Source of the DNA: Candidatus Pacearchaeota archaeon
Lineage (GTDB): Archaea > Nanobdellota > Nanobdellia > Pacearchaeales > GW2011-AR1
Direction: 5' to 3'
DNA: 64,000 nt
NCBI GenBank assembly: GCA_023139205.1
Contig: JAGLOA010000002.1
Location: 27,530-91,529 of the forward strand
Of the stretch, positions 9,948 through 53,520 are shown piece by piece (position 1 is the stretch's first letter; each line of letters starts with the position of its first letter). Below the pieces are notes generated by a model, which did no database searches, was not told where the DNA came from, and worked only from the letters and a program-made list of their open reading frames with translations. The translations under genes were made by a program, and so were the position numbers.

Positions 9948-10094
9948 TGCGCGGTCCGGGAATTGAACCCGGCTCACCTCGTTTTTGCTTTTTTATTTCG
10001 AGCGAATGCGAGCATTTGCAGGAAAGGTAGTGTCAGGAAAACCCGGGTTTTCCCACATTGGCAACGAGATATTCTACCAATAAACTAACCACGC
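9948..10094 (-). tRNA. tRNA-Gly (anticodon GCC) with a 76-nt intron after position 37
   Basis: Minus-strand fold. Acceptor GCGTGGT/ACCGCGC, anticodon stem TCTCG/CGAGG, loop TTGCCA|intron|A, T arm CCGGG-TTCAATT-CCCGG, discriminator A. The intron holds a GGAAAACCCGGGTTTTCC hairpin. An alternative Trp(CCA) register was rejected because it loses U33. Confidence 0.6.
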
Positions 10095-10834: not shown

Positions 10835-10912
10835 ATTGATAATATAATTAATTAATGACTTTTAAATTTGTCTATTCGCAAACTTTATATATGGTTTCAT
10901 CTCTTTTTCATT

Positions 10913-12457
10913 ATGGAATCAGATAAAACAGAACAAGATATTCCTGAAATGAATCTTGACAAAAAGTATTCTAATAAAAAGCCAGTTGTTCAGGAAAATT
11001 CTGAGGAAAATAAGAAAGAAATGGAAAAGACGAAAAAAGAGCTTGAGAAATTAAAATCATTTATTGTAAAAAAATATTCTTATACTAAATCTATTAGTAT
11101 TTTGCCTCCAGCTTCAATTAAACTTTTTATTGAAGAAGAGGAAGTCCCAAAAGAAACTGAAAAACATATCCATCTTTACATGATTATTCCTGAAGATAAA
11201 ATCAAACAAATTCCTAAGATGAAAGAAGAAATAATTAAGCAGATAGGGAAAGAAAAAATCTGGGTTCAAATTAAAAGTCCAGTTGATGTTTGGGAAAATT
11301 GTTTAGATAGTAAGTTTGAGTTGACAGGTGCAATTGCAATGTCTTTTCCACTTTATGATAAAGGTCTTTTAGGTGCTTTGAGAGTTGCTGAAATTCATAA
11401 GTCCTTGGTTTTGCAAAAGTTTGAGAAATATGTTGTGAGTTATGTTATTGGGGGAAGTTTGGTTAGGGGAGAAGCTATTAAAACTTCTGATGTAGATGTG
11501 TTTGTAATTATTAATGATACTGATGTTAAAAGAATGCCGAGGCTTGAATTAAAGGAGAGATTAAGAGGAATAATTTACCAATATGTTGCAGAGGCTTCTG
11601 CTCTTGCAGGTGTTAAAAATAAACTTGAACCGCAGATTTATCTTTTAACTGATTTTTGGGAAAGTGTTAAAGATGCTCATCCTGTTATTTTTACTTTTAT
11701 CAGGGACGGTATTCCTATTTATGACAGAGGAACATTTATGCCTTGGAAAGCTTTATTGAAAATGGGTAAACTTAAACCATCTCCAGAAGCTATTGATATG
11801 TTTATGTCTATGGGAGATAAAACTGTTAAAAGGGCTAAAAGTGCTTTGCTTGATATTTTAATTCATGAAATTTATTGGGGAATCACAACGCCTAGTCAGG
11901 CTCTATTAATGCTTTATGGATTACCCCCCCCAACTCCAAAACAAATTGTTCCTGAAATGAAAAAAGTATTTGTTGAAAAGGAGAAAATGTTAGAGAAAAA
12001 ATATGTAGATATTCTTGAAAAAGTTGTTGGAATTTACAAGGATTATGAACATGAGAAAATTAAAGAAATTAAAGGTGTGGAAATTGATAAAATCCTGAAG
12101 GATACTGAAGATTATTTGAAAAGGCTTAAAGAATTAAGAGAGCAAATTGAGAAAAGAGCTCAGGAAAAAACAATTGAACAAATTTACAAGGACACCTTTG
12201 AACTTTTGAAAGCTATGTTTGGAAGAAAATCTCAGGATGCGATTATCCAGGAGTTTGAGAAAAATTTTGTTAAGAAAGGTAAATTTTCTCAGCAACATTT
12301 GAGAATTTTGAAGAATATTATCACTGCTAAAACAGAGTTTAAAAAAGGTAAATTAAATTCTCATAAAGTTGATGAAGCAAGGAAAAACGCATCGATTTTG
12401 ATTAATGATTTGATCGAGTATAATCAAAGGTGTGATCTGGTTAATAATAAGAAATAA
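10913..12457 (+). CDS. Pol-beta superfamily nucleotidyltransferase with a large C-terminal helical domain (paralogue of 15901..16824)
   Basis: GGSLVRGEAIKTSDVDVFVI is the GS-x9-DxD nucleotidyltransferase motif. Downstream segments (GKLKPSPEAIDMF, YWGITTPSQALLMLYGLPPPTPKQIVPEMKKVFV, EIKGVEIDKILKDTEDYLKRLKE) are clearly homologous to the 15901..16824 protein. ATG at 10913; the listed ORF starts at an upstream TTG. Confidence 0.6.
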   Translation: MESDKTEQDIPEMNLDKKYSNKKPVVQENSEENKKEMEKTKKELEKLKSFIVKKYSYTKSISILPPASIKLFIEEEEVPKETEKHIHLYMIIPEDKIKQIPKMKEEIIKQIGKEKIWVQIKSPVDVWENCLDSKFELTGAIAMSFPLYDKGLLGALRVAEIHKSLVLQKFEKYVVSYVIGGSLVRGEAIKTSDVDVFVIINDTDVKRMPRLELKERLRGIIYQYVAEASALAGVKNKLEPQIYLLTDFWESVKDAHPVIFTFIRDGIPIYDRGTFMPWKALLKMGKLKPSPEAIDMFMSMGDKTVKRAKSALLDILIHEIYWGITTPSQALLMLYGLPPPTPKQIVPEMKKVFVEKEKMLEKKYVDILEKVVGIYKDYEHEKIKEIKGVEIDKILKDTEDYLKRLKELREQIEKRAQEKTIEQIYKDTFELLKAMFGRKSQDAIIQEFEKNFVKKGKFSQQHLRILKNIITAKTEFKKGKLNSHKVDEARKNASILINDLIEYNQRCDLVNNKK

Positions 12458-15900: not shown

Positions 15901-16824
15901 TTAGTTAATTAATTCTTTCACTAACTTAGCCATTACATTAAGAAATTCTTCTGTTTTTTGCTGCCAATCATCTATTTCCACACCTTTCAAATCTTTTATT
16001 TCTCCGTGTGCAATTTTTTTGTGAAGTATTAGTAAGTCTCTATACCAAAGTACATACTTTATTTTTAATTTCCCTGTATTTACAAAAATTTCTTTTAGGT
16101 CTACTGGAATATGTTCTGGAGAAGGAGGTGAGACCTTTGCTGCGATTAATGCTGCCTGAGATGAATCAACCATTGCCCAATATAATCCTTCAATTGAATT
16201 TAATTCAGCAGCTTTACTTCTTGCAATATGAATTGGGGCTCTTTGCAGGCAGTTGTAAACTGCTTCTGGTGTTGATTTTATTTTTCCTTTGATTAATAAA
16301 AATTTTAATGGTTCAAAAAATCCTGCCATGTCAATTATTGCTTCTCCATGTCTTAAAATATTTATCAGAACAGGGTCGCCTTTCATTAAATCTTCCCACC
16401 ATGTGCTTAATTTTATTGTATTAATGTGCAGACTTTTTTTATAAGGACTGCTTCTTAGAATTTTGTCAAGTTCTTCCCTATACCACGCAATTAATTCCTG
16501 GTCCCATCTTATTGAAACATCGTCGATAACAATAATAATATCAATGTCTGAGCCAACTACGGATGTTTTTTTTACTGTTGAACCAAAAAGAATTATTGAT
16601 TTAATGCTTTTGTCAAGTTTTTTATAGGCTTTTGTTGCAAAATCTGTTGCAATTGAAGTTTCTGTTTTTAGTTTTAAAGTTGGAATATCTTTTTCATTAA
16701 TTTTAAATTTCTTTTTTTTAGAAATTTTTTTCACTTTTTTAGAATTTGTTTTTTGCTTTAAATTAGATTGCTTTCTATCCTTGAGGTCTATTAGTTTAGG
16801 TAAACTCTTTTTTTTCTTCACCAT
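15901..16824 (-). CDS. Pol-beta superfamily nucleotidyltransferase, paralogue of 10913..12457
   Basis: LFGSTVKKTSVVGSDIDIIIVIDD nucleotidyltransferase motif. GKIKSTPEAVYNC, YWAMVDSSQAALIAAKVSPPSPEHIPVDLKEIFV and EIKDLKGVEIDDWQQKTEEFL are collinear with the plus-strand paralogue. Confidence 0.6.
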   Translation of the reverse strand: MVKKKKSLPKLIDLKDRKQSNLKQKTNSKKVKKISKKKKFKINEKDIPTLKLKTETSIATDFATKAYKKLDKSIKSIILFGSTVKKTSVVGSDIDIIIVIDDVSIRWDQELIAWYREELDKILRSSPYKKSLHINTIKLSTWWEDLMKGDPVLINILRHGEAIIDMAGFFEPLKFLLIKGKIKSTPEAVYNCLQRAPIHIARSKAAELNSIEGLYWAMVDSSQAALIAAKVSPPSPEHIPVDLKEIFVNTGKLKIKYVLWYRDLLILHKKIAHGEIKDLKGVEIDDWQQKTEEFLNVMAKLVKELIN

Positions 16825-16857
16825 CTTTTAAATTTAACGTTTGTTTAGTTTTTAAAA

Positions 16858-18627
16858 TTATTCCATTGGTCTTCCGCTCATCCTACTTCCTGTTCCACCT
16901 GCTTGTCCTCCAAGTTCCTGAGGAAGTTGTGAAAATCCTGCCCCAAATGTTTCATAGCTTTTTTGAGGAAGCATTTGCCCGTAACCTGAAAAATATCCCT
17001 GTTGCAATGCTGATGCCTGGTTCCAGTAAGGTGACATTTGCATTGAATAAATTGGAGAACCCATAGCTTCCAAGCTAATTGGATAAGGAGACTGACCAAA
17101 CTGCTGAACAAATCCTCCTGCTTCAACAATTTTTCTTGCGTCTTTTAATGTTCCTGCTTTTTCTAATTTTTCTAAAATTTCTTTAAATGGGACATTTCCC
17201 ATTCCAGGAGGCAAGTGGCTGTCACCATAACCAAAATTATCTGTTAAATGAACATGTTTTACATGTTTTGCAATCTGCTCAACTTCTTTTAATAAATCTT
17301 TATCTTCAAATCCTTTTTTCTTTGCAATATTTAAATGCCCAACATCTAAAGTCATCCCAATCATTTTATCTGCCTGCATTCTTGCTTCTGAATCTGAATA
17401 TCCTTTTTCAATAGCTTTTGCGACAAATTTTTTCTTAGATTCTGTAATTAAACTATCCATTCCTTCTCCATAAGCAAAAGCCATCCCAGGAAACAAATTT
17501 TCTATACAAATTTTTGGGGCTTTATCTTTGAATTTATCAAAAGCATTAAATGCAACATTTGCAAAAGTTTGGGAAGAATGTTTAACTGCGAAATCTTCTA
17601 TTGGAATATATAAATCTGGATTAACCCCTTTTAAATGCATCATTAATCCTTGAAGCGCTTTAGATTCTTGAGCAAGATTAAAGCCTTTTGGCAATTCGTT
17701 TTTAAATTCTTCTGATGCTTTTTCTAATTCTTTTTTTTCATCTTCTGTCCCATATTTATAAGCTTTATGAAATAATCCATTGATGTGTTGGTGGGTGTTT
17801 TGCAAATAAGTTTGGGCATTTACAAGGTGTCCATATGCTTGCTGCTGAACTGGGTTTAAAGCTTTTCTTTTTTCAAGATTTTCAAAAGTTTCTTTTAAAA
17901 TATCATCGGGGATTTGCATTATATTTTCAGAAATTATTTTATCTGCTCCTTCTTTATAATAAATAATTTGAGATAAAGAGTTGTCCCATTCACTATCATT
18001 TAAAAGTTTTAATTCTTTTTCCGGAGCACGAATTTCCGGGTCTCTTAACTTTTCCAGTGATACTCCCGGGTAATGTTTTATTTCTTCTTCAAGAGGGGCA
18101 GGTTTTCCTGTTTCCTGATTTATAACCATTAATTTTTCTACTTTTTTTCCTTCAGGAGTCATTTTATATTCTGTTCCTGGGATTCCTGCAGAATGTATTG
18201 TTATTGGCATGCCTCCTTTGTCATCCATTTCAATTGATTTTTCAACAACATCGCTTAACTGTCTTTCTGCAAGTTGTCTGTTTGATTCACTCCAACCCTG
18301 CTCTCCAATCCCAGAAGGTTCTATTAAAGGTGCATGAACAGAAATCTTGGCTCCTGTTAGTTTAGCCATACGATTTATTTCTTTAAAGTGTTGTTTAGGA
18401 ATCTGGTCAAAAACTTCTGGTTGTAATGCACCAACTTCTATTGGTACAATTCCCTGATTTAAGAGGCTATTAACTTGCTGGATTTGGTTTGCAGTATCTG
18501 GTTTTGTTGGAGCTCCTAATTCACTTGCTGTAACATGATATCCTGTAAAAACATCTCCATAAGAAGGACTTAAAGATGAATATCCTCCTTGATAAATATT
18601 GCCAATAGTGTAACCCTCTTTTGTCAT
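16858..18627 (-). CDS. xylose-isomerase-like TIM-barrel protein (sugar-phosphate isomerase / AP-endonuclease-2 superfamily) with a large insertion and a Q/Y/G/S-rich low-complexity C-terminus
   Basis: Barrel motifs AKISVHAPL, ICIENLFPG, DVGHLNIA and VHLTDNFGYGDSHLPPGMGNVPF. About 180 aa are inserted between the barrel halves. The terminal ~90 aa (FGQSPYPISLEAMGSPIYSMQMSPYWNQASALQQGYFSGYGQMLPQ…GGQAGGTGS) is prion-like low complexity. GC content is visibly elevated. Confidence 0.55.
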   Translation of the reverse strand: MTKEGYTIGNIYQGGYSSLSPSYGDVFTGYHVTASELGAPTKPDTANQIQQVNSLLNQGIVPIEVGALQPEVFDQIPKQHFKEINRMAKLTGAKISVHAPLIEPSGIGEQGWSESNRQLAERQLSDVVEKSIEMDDKGGMPITIHSAGIPGTEYKMTPEGKKVEKLMVINQETGKPAPLEEEIKHYPGVSLEKLRDPEIRAPEKELKLLNDSEWDNSLSQIIYYKEGADKIISENIMQIPDDILKETFENLEKRKALNPVQQQAYGHLVNAQTYLQNTHQHINGLFHKAYKYGTEDEKKELEKASEEFKNELPKGFNLAQESKALQGLMMHLKGVNPDLYIPIEDFAVKHSSQTFANVAFNAFDKFKDKAPKICIENLFPGMAFAYGEGMDSLITESKKKFVAKAIEKGYSDSEARMQADKMIGMTLDVGHLNIAKKKGFEDKDLLKEVEQIAKHVKHVHLTDNFGYGDSHLPPGMGNVPFKEILEKLEKAGTLKDARKIVEAGGFVQQFGQSPYPISLEAMGSPIYSMQMSPYWNQASALQQGYFSGYGQMLPQKSYETFGAGFSQLPQELGGQAGGTGSRMSGRPME

Positions 18628-18878
18628 ATTTTTTATAGTGAAAAAATGTTTATATAATTATTGGATTAAAGATTGTAAGGATTAAATTTCATAGAGATGT
18701 ATTCTCCATTATATTTGATAGAATTAAGGTTGTATAAATCTTTTGGGGTTGTTGCTGATTTTACATCATATTCTTTCTTTTTAGGAATCTTATATGGTTT
18801 TGGGATATTTCCCTGCATAAATGCTCCTAAATCTATAAATTCCATAAAATTAGATTAAGTTTTAATTAATAAATTTAT

Positions 18879-42526: not shown

Positions 42527-44899
42527 TCATTCATCTACCTCAACCTCTTCAACTCCAACAATTCCTCCACGATAATAATAAACATCTTCATAAGGAAGTT
42601 TAACTTTATTTATCTCGCTTAAATCTTCCAAATCATTTGCTTTTATCATTGTTCTTGAAATTGTGTAAAGTGTGTCATCCATGTAAAGAGATCTCTGCAC
42701 AGCATAAGGTCCGTAATAATAACCTTGTTCAGTTGTATTTTCTTTATGGTCTATTTTTCCCTTTAACTCAATTGTGTCTTGGTTTATTTTAAATACAAAA
42801 GATCCTTGCCAGTGCTCATATTTTCTTACTCCTTCTGTGTTTGTCCATTCTTCTGAATAAGACATTGGTAAAACTAATAATTCCCTGTCTTTATCAAACA
42901 AAAATGCTTTGTGATCATATAATGCATTTGAATTAGACCATCTTCCTTTAACTTCGTATTTTGCTTTTTCAATTGGATTTTCAACATCAGACACATCAAA
43001 CAATGCGATTTTAACACCCTGGATTCTTCCTTGTTCTGTTGCTTCTTTTCCTATTCCAATTATGTGGTTTTCGTCATAAGGATGCAAGTAGCTTGAATAT
43101 CCTGTAACTTTTAACTGACCTAAAACTTCTGGATTTTCTGGGTCTGATAAGTCAATTACAAAAAGAGGGTCAACCTTTTTGAAAGTCACCATATAAGCTT
43201 TTTCTCCCAAGAATCTTGCTGAATAAATTTTTTCGCCTTTTGCTAAATCATCTACACTTCCAATTATTTCTAAATTTGAGTCAAGTACATATAAATGATT
43301 CAAGCTATTATCTGACCAGGAATCTCCTGTTGTTGTAGCGATTCTGAAATTATTGTCATACTCATCCATTGAAAATTGATTTAAAACTGTTCCAGGAACT
43401 TCTCCTGCCGTGATATATTCAATATTATTTTCATCAATATTAATTTTATGAACAACTGTTTTTTCTGTTTTTTTCTGAATCTCAATCATAAACTCCTGCA
43501 TTTTTTCAAATAATTCCTGGTCAAACTCTGCTTTTTCTTTTTCTGTTAAACTCATAGAATATTCCTGAACAAGGTTACTAACTTCATTGTATTTTTCATT
43601 AAGAGATTTCTCTGAATCCATTATCTCTTTTATTTCTCTTCTTTGTTCTCTGGGAACAATAGGTTTCATTACTTCATCAACCATTTCTTCTAAATAATTA
43701 TTTGATTTAACTCTCTTAGTGTAAGTTAAATAAATATTCTCCTGAGAAACATAAATATTATGGCTTGCACCTGTCAAAAATGTTTTTGATTCAAATTCTA
43801 AATCCTGTGAATTTATTGCTAAAATATTTGTGAATGTGTAGCTTGTATCAGGATAATTAAAATATGAAATTTTATTTACAGCTATTTCTTCTTTTATTCC
43901 ATCAACCATGATTCCAGGCAAAACAATATTATCAAATCCTACATGCTGGTTTGCAATAACATAAACATAATCATTAATCATTCTCGCATTAACATAATAA
44001 CCATCTGTAGAAATTTCTTTTTCCAACTCTGGGAATTCTTTATCTGTTACATCATATATTTTTATGTCTGTTTTTTGTCCACCTTTATAATTATTTGAAA
44101 AGATTATTAACTTGTTATTATTTAAGAAGATGTTTCTTATATTGCTGACATTTATTTCACTTAAAATTTCCATGTCTTCTGCCGGATAAGCATTTACAAT
44201 AATAACTTTGCTTCCTGAAACAGCGTAAATATATTTTCCGTCATTTTTTACTATGTCTGGTTCATCAACTCCCTTAACCTGTATATTTGTTTCTGAATAA
44301 TCTGATGCTGATTTTGATTCCTGAGTTGAGCCTGTTACAGAATCTGTTCCTGAGGCAAATGTTGCTTCTGCCATTATTTCTCCTCCTCTTAATCCTCCAT
44401 AAGAATCTATCTGCTCTTGATTTTCTTCTAAGAACTTTTCAAGTTGAGAATAAGAGCTAAATGTTTTGATCTCTGTTTGATCTTCATCAATAATTCCTTG
44501 TTGAGGAATCATCAAGCTGATTAATATTACTAAAAACGCAATTGCTGCGATTACAGGAATAATTGTTTTAAGTGTATCAATAGTTGGTTTTGATTTTGGA
44601 GAAATAACTATGTGCTTTTTTGCTAATTTATACATTGGAATTTTTTTTCCTTTTTTACTCCAGAAAAAGTTTTTTGTTTTTTCAACCAACCCAGTTTCTA
44701 ATAATTTTTTCAAATTATACTCTGTAGTATTTATCGGAATATTCAAAGCATCTGCAATATCTTTTTCACTTGCCTGTTTCGTTTCAGCCAAATAATCAAT
44801 TATTTTTTTGCAGGTTTTGTTTCCTAATACTTCTGCTATTTTTTTTGACCTTTTATCATTAAGACCCATTAAAATGAATTTATCGTCCATATAAAGCAT
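42527..44899 (-). CDS. wHTH (ArsR-like) – transmembrane – large extracytoplasmic beta-propeller-type domain protein
   Basis: N-terminal KKIIDYLAETKQASEKDIADALNIPINTTEYNLKKLLETGLVEK (wHTH), one transmembrane helix (IIPVIAAIAFLVILISLMI), then about 650 aa of beta-rich domain. Confidence 0.5.
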   Translation of the reverse strand: MLYMDDKFILMGLNDKRSKKIAEVLGNKTCKKIIDYLAETKQASEKDIADALNIPINTTEYNLKKLLETGLVEKTKNFFWSKKGKKIPMYKLAKKHIVISPKSKPTIDTLKTIIPVIAAIAFLVILISLMIPQQGIIDEDQTEIKTFSSYSQLEKFLEENQEQIDSYGGLRGGEIMAEATFASGTDSVTGSTQESKSASDYSETNIQVKGVDEPDIVKNDGKYIYAVSGSKVIIVNAYPAEDMEILSEINVSNIRNIFLNNNKLIIFSNNYKGGQKTDIKIYDVTDKEFPELEKEISTDGYYVNARMINDYVYVIANQHVGFDNIVLPGIMVDGIKEEIAVNKISYFNYPDTSYTFTNILAINSQDLEFESKTFLTGASHNIYVSQENIYLTYTKRVKSNNYLEEMVDEVMKPIVPREQRREIKEIMDSEKSLNEKYNEVSNLVQEYSMSLTEKEKAEFDQELFEKMQEFMIEIQKKTEKTVVHKINIDENNIEYITAGEVPGTVLNQFSMDEYDNNFRIATTTGDSWSDNSLNHLYVLDSNLEIIGSVDDLAKGEKIYSARFLGEKAYMVTFKKVDPLFVIDLSDPENPEVLGQLKVTGYSSYLHPYDENHIIGIGKEATEQGRIQGVKIALFDVSDVENPIEKAKYEVKGRWSNSNALYDHKAFLFDKDRELLVLPMSYSEEWTNTEGVRKYEHWQGSFVFKINQDTIELKGKIDHKENTTEQGYYYGPYAVQRSLYMDDTLYTISRTMIKANDLEDLSEINKVKLPYEDVYYYRGGIVGVEEVEVDE

Positions 44900-53393: not shown

Positions 53394-53520
53394 GGCTCCG
53401 TAGCTCAGCCTGGTTAGAGCACTGGACTTTTACGCCGAAAAAATCTCTTTGCGTACTTCGCACAGGAACAAAATTGGTGAAGCAATCCAGGTGTCGAGGG
53501 TTCGAATCCCTTCGGGGCCA
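53394..53520 (+). tRNA. tRNA-Lys (anticodon TTT) with a 52-nt intron (53433..53484) after position 37
   Basis: Acceptor GGCTCCG/CGGGGCC, D arm GCTC-AGCCTGGTTA-GAGC, anticodon stem CTGGA/TCCAG, loop CTTTTA|intron|A, T arm GAGGG-TTCGAAT-CCCTT, discriminator A. Confidence 0.7.

Follow-up and report, generated by a model that had tools for sequence, protein, structure and literature searches.

The DNA analyzed here, a window of 64,000 nt taken as a whole, is an archaeal chromosome segment of 29% GC that also encodes a thermosome, RNA polymerase B/A′, NrdD, aaRS, and ribosomal proteins. The gene on which we focus encodes a protein of 589 residues, and its translation is exactly the sequence, motifs included, that was quoted in a preliminary description of this DNA. 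The identical protein at NCBI carries the name "sugar phosphate isomerase/epimerase [Ca. Pacearchaeota]." The gene and its neighbors are arranged as follows:

15901..16824, (−) strand: nucleotidyltransferase (NTase) of the Pol-β type, 307 aa (Pfam PF18765/PF01909), the downstream partner, beginning 33 nt after the barrel gene
16858..18627, (−) strand: whole coding sequence of the barrel gene, 589 aa plus stop codon, a TIM-barrel protein of the MJ1311/EndoIV-like type from a Woese-/Pacearchaeal family
18879..19442, (−) strand: E/K-rich, low-complexity acidic protein, 187 aa, an upstream partner
19448..20848, (−) strand: highly conserved protein of 466 aa, an upstream partner, for which neither a Pfam domain nor a fold match was found
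20931..21257, (+) strand: coiled-coil protein, 108 aa, divergently transcribed and conserved beside the cluster

This arrangement recurs in homologous loci. Downstream, on the same strand, the NTase gene follows in 71 of the 72 loci with enough flank, the gene for the 466-aa protein lies upstream on the same strand in 58 of 63, and the coiled-coil gene is found on the opposite strand in 49 of 60. Gene calls were read for three homologous loci, and each has a gene for 170–210 residues called in between those for the 466-aa and barrel proteins; the 187-aa protein evolves fast, being recognized by tblastn in just 12 of 83 loci, and no recognizable fold or domain was found in it with Pfam/NCBIfam. 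The 187-aa and barrel genes are separated by a 59-aa ORF that is not conserved. In small genomes, and beside housekeeping genes, part of such synteny could be gene order that was inherited and not a sign of function.

The 466-aa protein is one of a large family (62–73% identity among the top matches), and its AlphaFold2 (AF2) model is of moderate confidence (pLDDT 64), with invariant residues inside the low-confidence segments. Searches for its identity gave no Pfam or NCBIfam match, a best Foldseek E-value against the PDB of 0.4, and nothing by profile against PDB sequences. The NTase has a Lys-rich N-terminus, also present in the family consensus, and a helical C-domain. Its best NCBIfam match is to the protein-AMPylating MntA antitoxin family, below the cutoff (E 8e-5, 22.5 vs. 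60 bits); beyond the catalytic core it had no PDB sequence match, and its C-domain had no consistent Pfam match, a single HEPN match (E 0.011) being obtained in one of five orthologs. The possibility that the cluster is a defense or toxin-antitoxin system was considered and rejected, as the PADLOC matches are to the generic NTase core only and the near-universal presence of the cluster argues against it.

The barrel protein represents a large, uncharacterized family restricted to Woese-, Pace-, and Nanoarchaeota. A word-indexed search returned >1,300 homologs, the best 120 of which are all 579–644 aa in length, with 52–83% identity to the query over 96–100% of its length and a precomputed PF01261 assignment in every case (120/120). 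The family is present in at least 586 GTDB species genomes, and the titles of the best 80 loci are almost all Woese-, Pace-, or Nanoarchaeota. Among hundreds of species, it and its partners retain 50–80% identity, about as much as core housekeeping proteins do; their current annotations read only "sugar phosphate isomerase" or "hypothetical," and a literature search found no description of either the barrel family or the gene cluster.

An AF2 monomer model of the barrel protein, built from a 56-sequence alignment, has a mean pLDDT of 80, with values >90 for the barrel and an inserted domain and <50 for residues 1–29 and 526–589. Read from the N-terminus, the coding sequence (all on the minus strand) is divided as follows:

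18523..18627, (−) strand: N-terminal arm, residues 1–35, Y/G/S-rich, conserved, pLDDT <50
18178..18522, (−) strand: N-terminal half of the barrel, residues 36–150 (β1–β4), with the invariant H98 (HAP) and H145 (ITIH)
17608..18177, (−) strand: insertion after β4, residues 151–340, modeled by AF2 as a β-hairpin sheet plus a helical bundle
17053..17607, (−) strand: C-terminal half of the barrel, residues 341–525 (α4 to α8), with E376, D428, H431, H460, D463, D469, H471, and E502
16861..17052, (−) strand: C-terminal tail, residues 526–589, IYSMQMSPYWNQASALQQGYFSGYGQMLPQKSYETFGAGFSQLPQELGGQAGGTGSRMSGRPME, position-by-position conserved, of fixed length, pLDDT <50

The preliminary description had proposed a TIM barrel of the xylose-isomerase/endonuclease-IV superfamily with an internal insertion, and both elements were borne out. 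The protein matches PF01261 (AP_endonuc_2) over residues 420–492 with 43.4 bits against a gathering cutoff of 31.1 bits, the (β/α)8 barrel of the AF2 model superposes on solved xylose isomerase-like members, the metal motifs are in place, and the model shows an extra domain at 151–340. With respect to the extent of the tail, residues 526–589 were correctly assigned to it, and residues 505–525, which had been counted with it, form the last helices of the barrel in the AF2 model. The insertion is modeled with confidence, yet it has the lowest conservation and the most indels of any region (33% mean identity, 684 insert columns). Situated on the catalytic face of the barrel, these 190 residues probably form a lid or a substrate-recognition module. 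Weak matches of the insertion to Nsp1/Nup62 coiled-coil profiles (E 0.5–0.7) were dismissed as coiled-coil noise rather than a link to FG-nucleoporins.

For the active site we used as reference E. coli Nfo from NC_000913.3, whose ligand numbering was verified. Nine catalytic residues of EndoIV have been defined in a study in which MJ1311 was the predicted Nfo homolog of M. jannaschii (Kiyonari et al., 2009; PMC2770678). The nine trinuclear-metal ligands of Nfo (H69, H109, E145, D179, H182, H216, D229, H231, and E261) have counterparts in the same order in the barrel family, namely H98, H145, E376, D428, H431, H460, D469, H471, and E502, which are placed at the C-terminal ends of predicted strands or in the β7–α7 loop; the AF2 strands at residues 95–98 and 141–145, for instance, end at H98 and H145. 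In a profile alignment (hhalign) whose statistics are weak (E 0.064), the five C-terminal ligands fall opposite Nfo D179/H182/H216/D229/H231; the pairing of the four N-terminal ligands relies on motif and the order of strands only. The predicted metal-ligand residues are conserved across the family: H98, H145, E376, D428, and E502 are present in all 223 sequences, H460 in 222, H431 in 219, D469 in 182 (with His in 33), and H471 in 179 (with Glu in 38). Within this set, E376, D428, H460, and E502 make up a core E-D-H-E tetrad, each residue at the end of a predicted strand.

We conclude from these sequence comparisons that the barrel is a predicted multi-metal enzyme of the MJ1311/EndoIV type. 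Since the full EndoIV-type set of nine ligand positions is present, we infer that a phosphoesterase or hydrolase with two or three metals is more likely than the sugar-phosphate isomerase of the database name. The name could nonetheless be right, with the barrel acting as a single-metal sugar or sugar-phosphate isomerase/epimerase, as the tetrad is that of the ketose 3-epimerases, epimerases score as well as EndoIV in fold searches, and there are weak NCBIfam matches to hydroxypyruvate isomerase and fructoselysine 3-epimerase. However, the latter reach approximately 20 bits against cutoffs of at least 300 and span just 50 residues (across the isomerase/epimerase equivalogs, the best scores are 14–21 bits against cutoffs of 290–353, a miss by >270 bits), five additional EndoIV-type positions (H98, H145, H431, D469, and H471) are conserved of which single-metal epimerases need none, and the neighboring genes are not those of sugar metabolism. 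We consider a single-metal isomerase doubtful, if by no means far-fetched.

Among proteins of known structure the closest relative, by both sequence and structure, is MJ1311 of Methanocaldococcus jannaschii (PDB 3WQO, a "D-tagatose 3-epimerase-like protein" of unknown function), which was the only match of the barrel family in a profile search of PDB sequences and which likewise has EndoIV-type ligands on an epimerase-like barrel. Reportedly, the nine ligands are conserved in the MJ1311 structure and there is no DNA-binding groove. MJ1311 is a single-domain barrel of 293 aa with neither an N-terminal arm nor the 190-aa insertion after β4, and with ~33 residues after its last catalytic Glu, whereas the family protein has 589 aa, the insertion at 151–340, arms at 1–35 and 526–589, and ~87 residues after that Glu. 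With endonuclease IV (Nfo/Apn1) the family has the nine metal-ligand positions in common, but it has no sequence-level match to it (no Nfo model was among the NCBIfam matches at E ≤ 1) and has a large catalytic-face insertion and two arms. In Nfo, Tyr72-Leu73 after His69 intercalate into DNA, but the position in register with Tyr72, residue 101 (H98+3), is aliphatic (L/I/M/V, never Tyr) in the family, a register taken from the motif and not from structural superposition, and no counterpart of the Nfo NQR (Arg37) loop was recognized. Both this residue and the missing Nfo model speak against a canonical AP endonuclease. Ketose 3-epimerases (D-tagatose/D-psicose/L-ribulose) were the top Foldseek matches (E 3e-5, TM ~0.65 on the target) and have the E-D-H-E metal tetrad in common with the family; they differ in having 8–18% identity to it, and the family adds His/Asp ligands, the insertion, and the arms and is without a sugar-metabolism context.

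The C-terminus is the part of the protein that drew attention in the preliminary description, where it was presented as a low-complexity tail of prion-like, Q-rich, and FG-like character. The last 85 residues are indeed rich in G, Q, S, P, Y, and M, with ~8% charged residues as compared to ~27% elsewhere in the protein, and no other real ORF of the window has a comparable segment. The low-complexity claim holds only loosely: segmasker at the long-window, non-globular setting (45/3.4/3.75) flags residues ~503–585, but at default parameters it masks nothing anywhere in the 589 residues, and there are no repeats. The SEG criterion as we re-implemented it, at default thresholds, finds low-complexity segments in three neighboring proteins. 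Disorder of the tail was upheld in the AF2 monomer, with pLDDT values of 34–41 for residues 530–589. The Q-rich/FG-like/prion-like label was not, as in residues 526–589 Q+N amounts to 15.6% with a longest run of 2, and there is one FG, one [GS]Y[GS], and neither GLFG nor FxFG among 16 residue types. No PIP-box, HbYX, or diglycine C-terminal motif was seen on inspection of the tail sequence. An apparent series of motifs duplicated between the N-terminal arm and the tail (QGGY...YG...F.GY...ELGA vs. QQGY...GYG...FGAGF...ELGG) proved not to be significant (hhalign E 0.36; Smith–Waterman z 1.85, with 5.9% of shuffles reaching the score).

What characterizes the tail is the manner of its conservation. 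The C-termini of homologs align residue for residue:

...SP..LEAMGSPIY....PYWNQ..GLQQGY.GGYG.MLP...Y.TFGAGFSQLP.ELGGQ..G..GSRMSG.PME

The conserved positions include Gly, Pro, Leu, and Glu "spacers," aromatics, and a few polar residues. Over 223 full-length family members, mean identity to the query is 0.61 in the tail, against 0.62 and 0.59 in the two barrel halves, 0.33 in the insertion, and 0.46 in the N-terminal arm, where Y6, Y12, Q13, G14, G15, P21, and G29 are conserved. Gaps in the tail amount to 1.8%, and 186 of the 223 sequences have 86–90 residues after the last catalytic Glu. The end motif ...SG.PME is conserved, with the termini PME, GME, PMD, PNE, PNQ, and PNA observed; they are usually acidic or polar, and a sizeable minority of sequences end in Ala or Gln. 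Queried with the tail alone, an exhaustive phmmer search of 1.84 billion representative proteins returned 235 clusters; among the 150 listed, the match was at or near the C-terminus of proteins of 590–660 aa or their fragments, with the exception of three truncated or read-through sequences. The idea that the tail is a mobile module carried by other proteins was accordingly set aside, since among the matches listed it occurred in the barrel family only.

Absence of the tail from homologs and an origin by frameshift had been named as outcomes that would count against it. The tail is present in every full-length homolog examined and is conserved there, which leads us to regard it as real and functional. 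That it might instead be an artefact (frameshift, read-through, or assembly error) on a normal barrel of ~500 aa has in its favor a GC content and composition unlike the rest of the gene. Against this, the identical 589-aa protein occurs on at least nine contigs that were assembled independently and come from several samples, all 223 full-length homologs have the tail in the same frame, down to ~36% tail identity, and the family is in the hundreds of species genomes noted above. Moreover, the GC excess of the tail-coding DNA (43.8% GC) is at codon position 2 (0.50 vs. 0.31) and not at position 3, which indicates that the composition is held by amino-acid selection against the AT mutational bias. 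A frameshift origin is excluded, and the chance of any such artefact is practically nil.

We propose, with somewhat better than even confidence, that the protein is a metal-dependent MJ1311/EndoIV-like barrel with an insertion and sequence-specific terminal docking arms, which would anchor it in a lineage-specific multi-protein assembly. The combination of position-specific conservation, fixed length, and lack of confident structure in the monomer leads us to read residues 526–589, and with them residues 1–35, as assembly or docking arms and not as prion-like low-complexity domains. These features typically occur together in extended arms that become ordered on binding, such as ribosomal-protein extensions and capsid arms, and within the same superfamily xylose and rhamnose isomerases clasp neighboring subunits with extensions of their C-termini. 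The extensions of xylose and L-rhamnose isomerase are helical and part of the crystal structures, whereas the tail of the barrel family is rich in Gly, Pro, and aromatic residues, is predicted to have almost no secondary structure, and has no sequence similarity to them. Against docking, AF2 placed the arms nowhere on the monomer. We infer that these length-constrained arms, without structure in the monomer alone, most likely fold when they contact either neighboring subunits of a homo-oligomer or products of the cluster (the 466-aa protein, the 187-aa acidic protein, or the NTase).

Three other roles for the tail are each possible, though less likely than docking. The prion-like reading of the preliminary description would have composition drive phase separation or amyloid-like self-association, as in FUS-type low-complexity or FG-nucleoporin domains. 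The tail resembles such domains in its enrichment in G, S, Q, Y, and P, its depletion in charge, its predicted disorder, and its long-window SEG flag, and its regularly spaced aromatics could serve as "stickers." However, prion-like, FUS, and FG domains conserve composition only, with drift in sequence and length, and here the reverse was seen: the tail is conserved by position to the level of the catalytic core, spacers included, with few indels, a fixed length, and an exact C-terminal motif, and its modest Q/N content, its negative result in default SEG, and its freedom from repeats also set it apart. The 187-aa neighbor, which drifts beyond recognition, behaves as expected of a truly low-complexity sequence and provides the contrast. 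Conservation of this kind points to a specific binding arm and not a compositional domain, and the pattern largely refutes the prion-like reading, which we regard as very unlikely. Taken overall, the preliminary description was thus partly confirmed and its interpretation partly supported.

It is also feasible that the tail is a regulatory lid or pseudo-substrate, in its own subunit or in cis in a dimer, with the Glu and the carboxylate of ...SG.PME gating the metal center. The last residues are conserved and the terminus is usually acidic or polar, a tail of 64 residues is long enough to reach the catalytic face, and in MJ1311 cross-subunit residues lie over the metal site. Conversely, AF2, run on the 56-sequence alignment, did not dock the tail on the barrel with confidence, and an Ala or Gln terminus, as in the minority mentioned above, fits poorly with such a gate; we judge a lid improbable. 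Less probable again is that the Tyr/Ser-rich arms are AMPylated or nucleotidylylated by the adjacent NTase, as HepT is by MntA, thereby switching the enzyme or the assembly. The NTase is the near-constant immediate downstream neighbor, its best match, if below cutoff, is the MntA family, Y6, Y12, Y545, and Y558 vary little or not at all, and the arms have a conserved ...SR.SG motif. Nevertheless, the match spans only the generic catalytic core, the C-domain of the NTase fits no family consistently, and the Lys-rich N-terminus points instead to nucleic acid as its substrate.

Returning to docking arms as the preferred reading, a more far-reaching and decidedly tentative version of it is that the barrel is the enzymatic subunit of a new Woese-/Pacearchaeota-specific machine encoded by the syntenic cluster, into which the arms would thread the enzyme. 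Its candidate components would be the coiled-coil protein of 108 aa, the 466-aa protein with its putatively novel fold, the acidic 187-aa protein, the MJ1311/EndoIV-like barrel, and the Lys-rich NTase. Such a machine might combine nucleic-acid end-healing, by a three-metal phosphoesterase, with tailing by the NTase, or might contain an enzyme that the NTase regulates.

Pace- and Woesearchaeota make up a large part of archaeal diversity and have tiny genomes in which much of the conserved gene content is without known function; a module of 51 families common to both, most of them of unknown function, has been described (Castelle et al., 2021; PMC8204110). What is new here is an architecture, an insertion and two conserved arms, built on a known enzyme superfamily and located in a conserved, lineage-specific gene cluster. 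The tail is at the same time a cautionary case, as it illustrates that biased composition and predicted disorder do not suffice to identify a low-complexity domain. Re-reading a family annotated as "sugar phosphate isomerase" as a putative EndoIV/MJ1311-type metallo-enzyme with docking arms in a conserved cluster provides structural and biochemical work with a concrete target, and the interest of the family would rise should the cluster turn out to encode a dedicated complex.

Window positions 15901-21257 hold a conserved five-gene neighbourhood, which is common to most of the 83 homologous loci, these coming from different Woese-/Pacearchaeal species. Its genes lie in the following order:

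108-aa coiled-coil protein, forward strand
19448-20848, reverse strand, 466-aa protein
18879-19442, reverse strand, 187-aa E/K-rich protein
16858-18627, reverse strand, 589-aa MJ1311/EndoIV-like TIM-barrel protein
15901-16824, reverse strand, 307-aa Pol-beta-type nucleotidyltransferase (NTase)

A GluRS-like gene is found near the cluster in 44 of the 83 loci. The same cluster was also observed in records titled "Bacillota bacterium" (L034), "Candidatus Iainarchaeum" (L016/L003) and "Diapherotrites" (L062), probably reflecting mis-binning or mislabelling of MAG contigs and not true occurrences outside Nanoarchaeota.

Conservation of the NTase family is very high (58-80 % identity in the best segment). 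The protein has the catalytic motif LFGS...GSDIDIIIIIDD. Its N-terminal extension is rich in Lys and variable; its C-domain (QRAP.H..RSK...EGLYW.MVDSAHAALIA) is helical, conserved and without family assignment. The 466-aa protein is one member of a very large family annotated as "hypothetical", with 62-73 % identity among the top 120 matches, and gave no match in Pfam, NCBIfam or PDB and none by Foldseek. Its predicted model consists of long helices and a beta-sheet, with low-pLDDT segments (residues 54-85 and 388-422) that contain invariant residues, and it may represent a new fold.

Several features elsewhere in the window were also noted:

9948-10094, reverse strand, tRNA match
10868-12457, forward strand, second PF01909 nucleotidyltransferase (529 aa)
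42527-44899, reverse strand, 790-aa protein with an N-terminal HTH_20 winged-helix and a PF09826 beta-propeller domain (E 3e-159)
53394-53520, forward strand, tRNA match

The 529-aa nucleotidyltransferase is probably a class I CCA-adding enzyme, and a 519-aa counterpart occurs in one homologous locus (L001), about as far from the cluster as here. The tRNA matches cover 147 and 127 nt, respectively, versus 71 positions in the model, and are therefore probably archaeal tRNA genes that contain introns. The pairing of HTH_20 with PF09826 in the 790-aa protein is unusual.

Within the barrel protein, the D..H pair at residues 469/471 (window 17215-17223), part of a putative third metal site, is replaced by H..E in a subfamily comprising 33-38 of the 223 aligned full-length sequences; the exchange leaves two residues capable of metal binding. 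The helical insertion (residues 212-337, window 17617-17994), searched with its family profile, weakly matched coiled-coil regions of the nucleoporins Nsp1, Nup62 and Nup214 (E 0.5-0.9), matches we judged to be coiled-coil compositional noise.

A TATA-like ATTATATAA precedes the ATG of the barrel gene by ~30 nt and suggests that this gene has its own promoter, although such a sequence carries little weight where the genome is AT-rich. Within the 251-nt gap that precedes the barrel gene, some pipelines call an additional ORF, which is not conserved in other loci:

18666-18845, reverse strand, 59-aa ORF

Of the cluster's members, the 187-aa protein is the one that is truly low in complexity and drifts fast. 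It keeps its position, but its sequence can be recognised in only 12 of the 83 loci.
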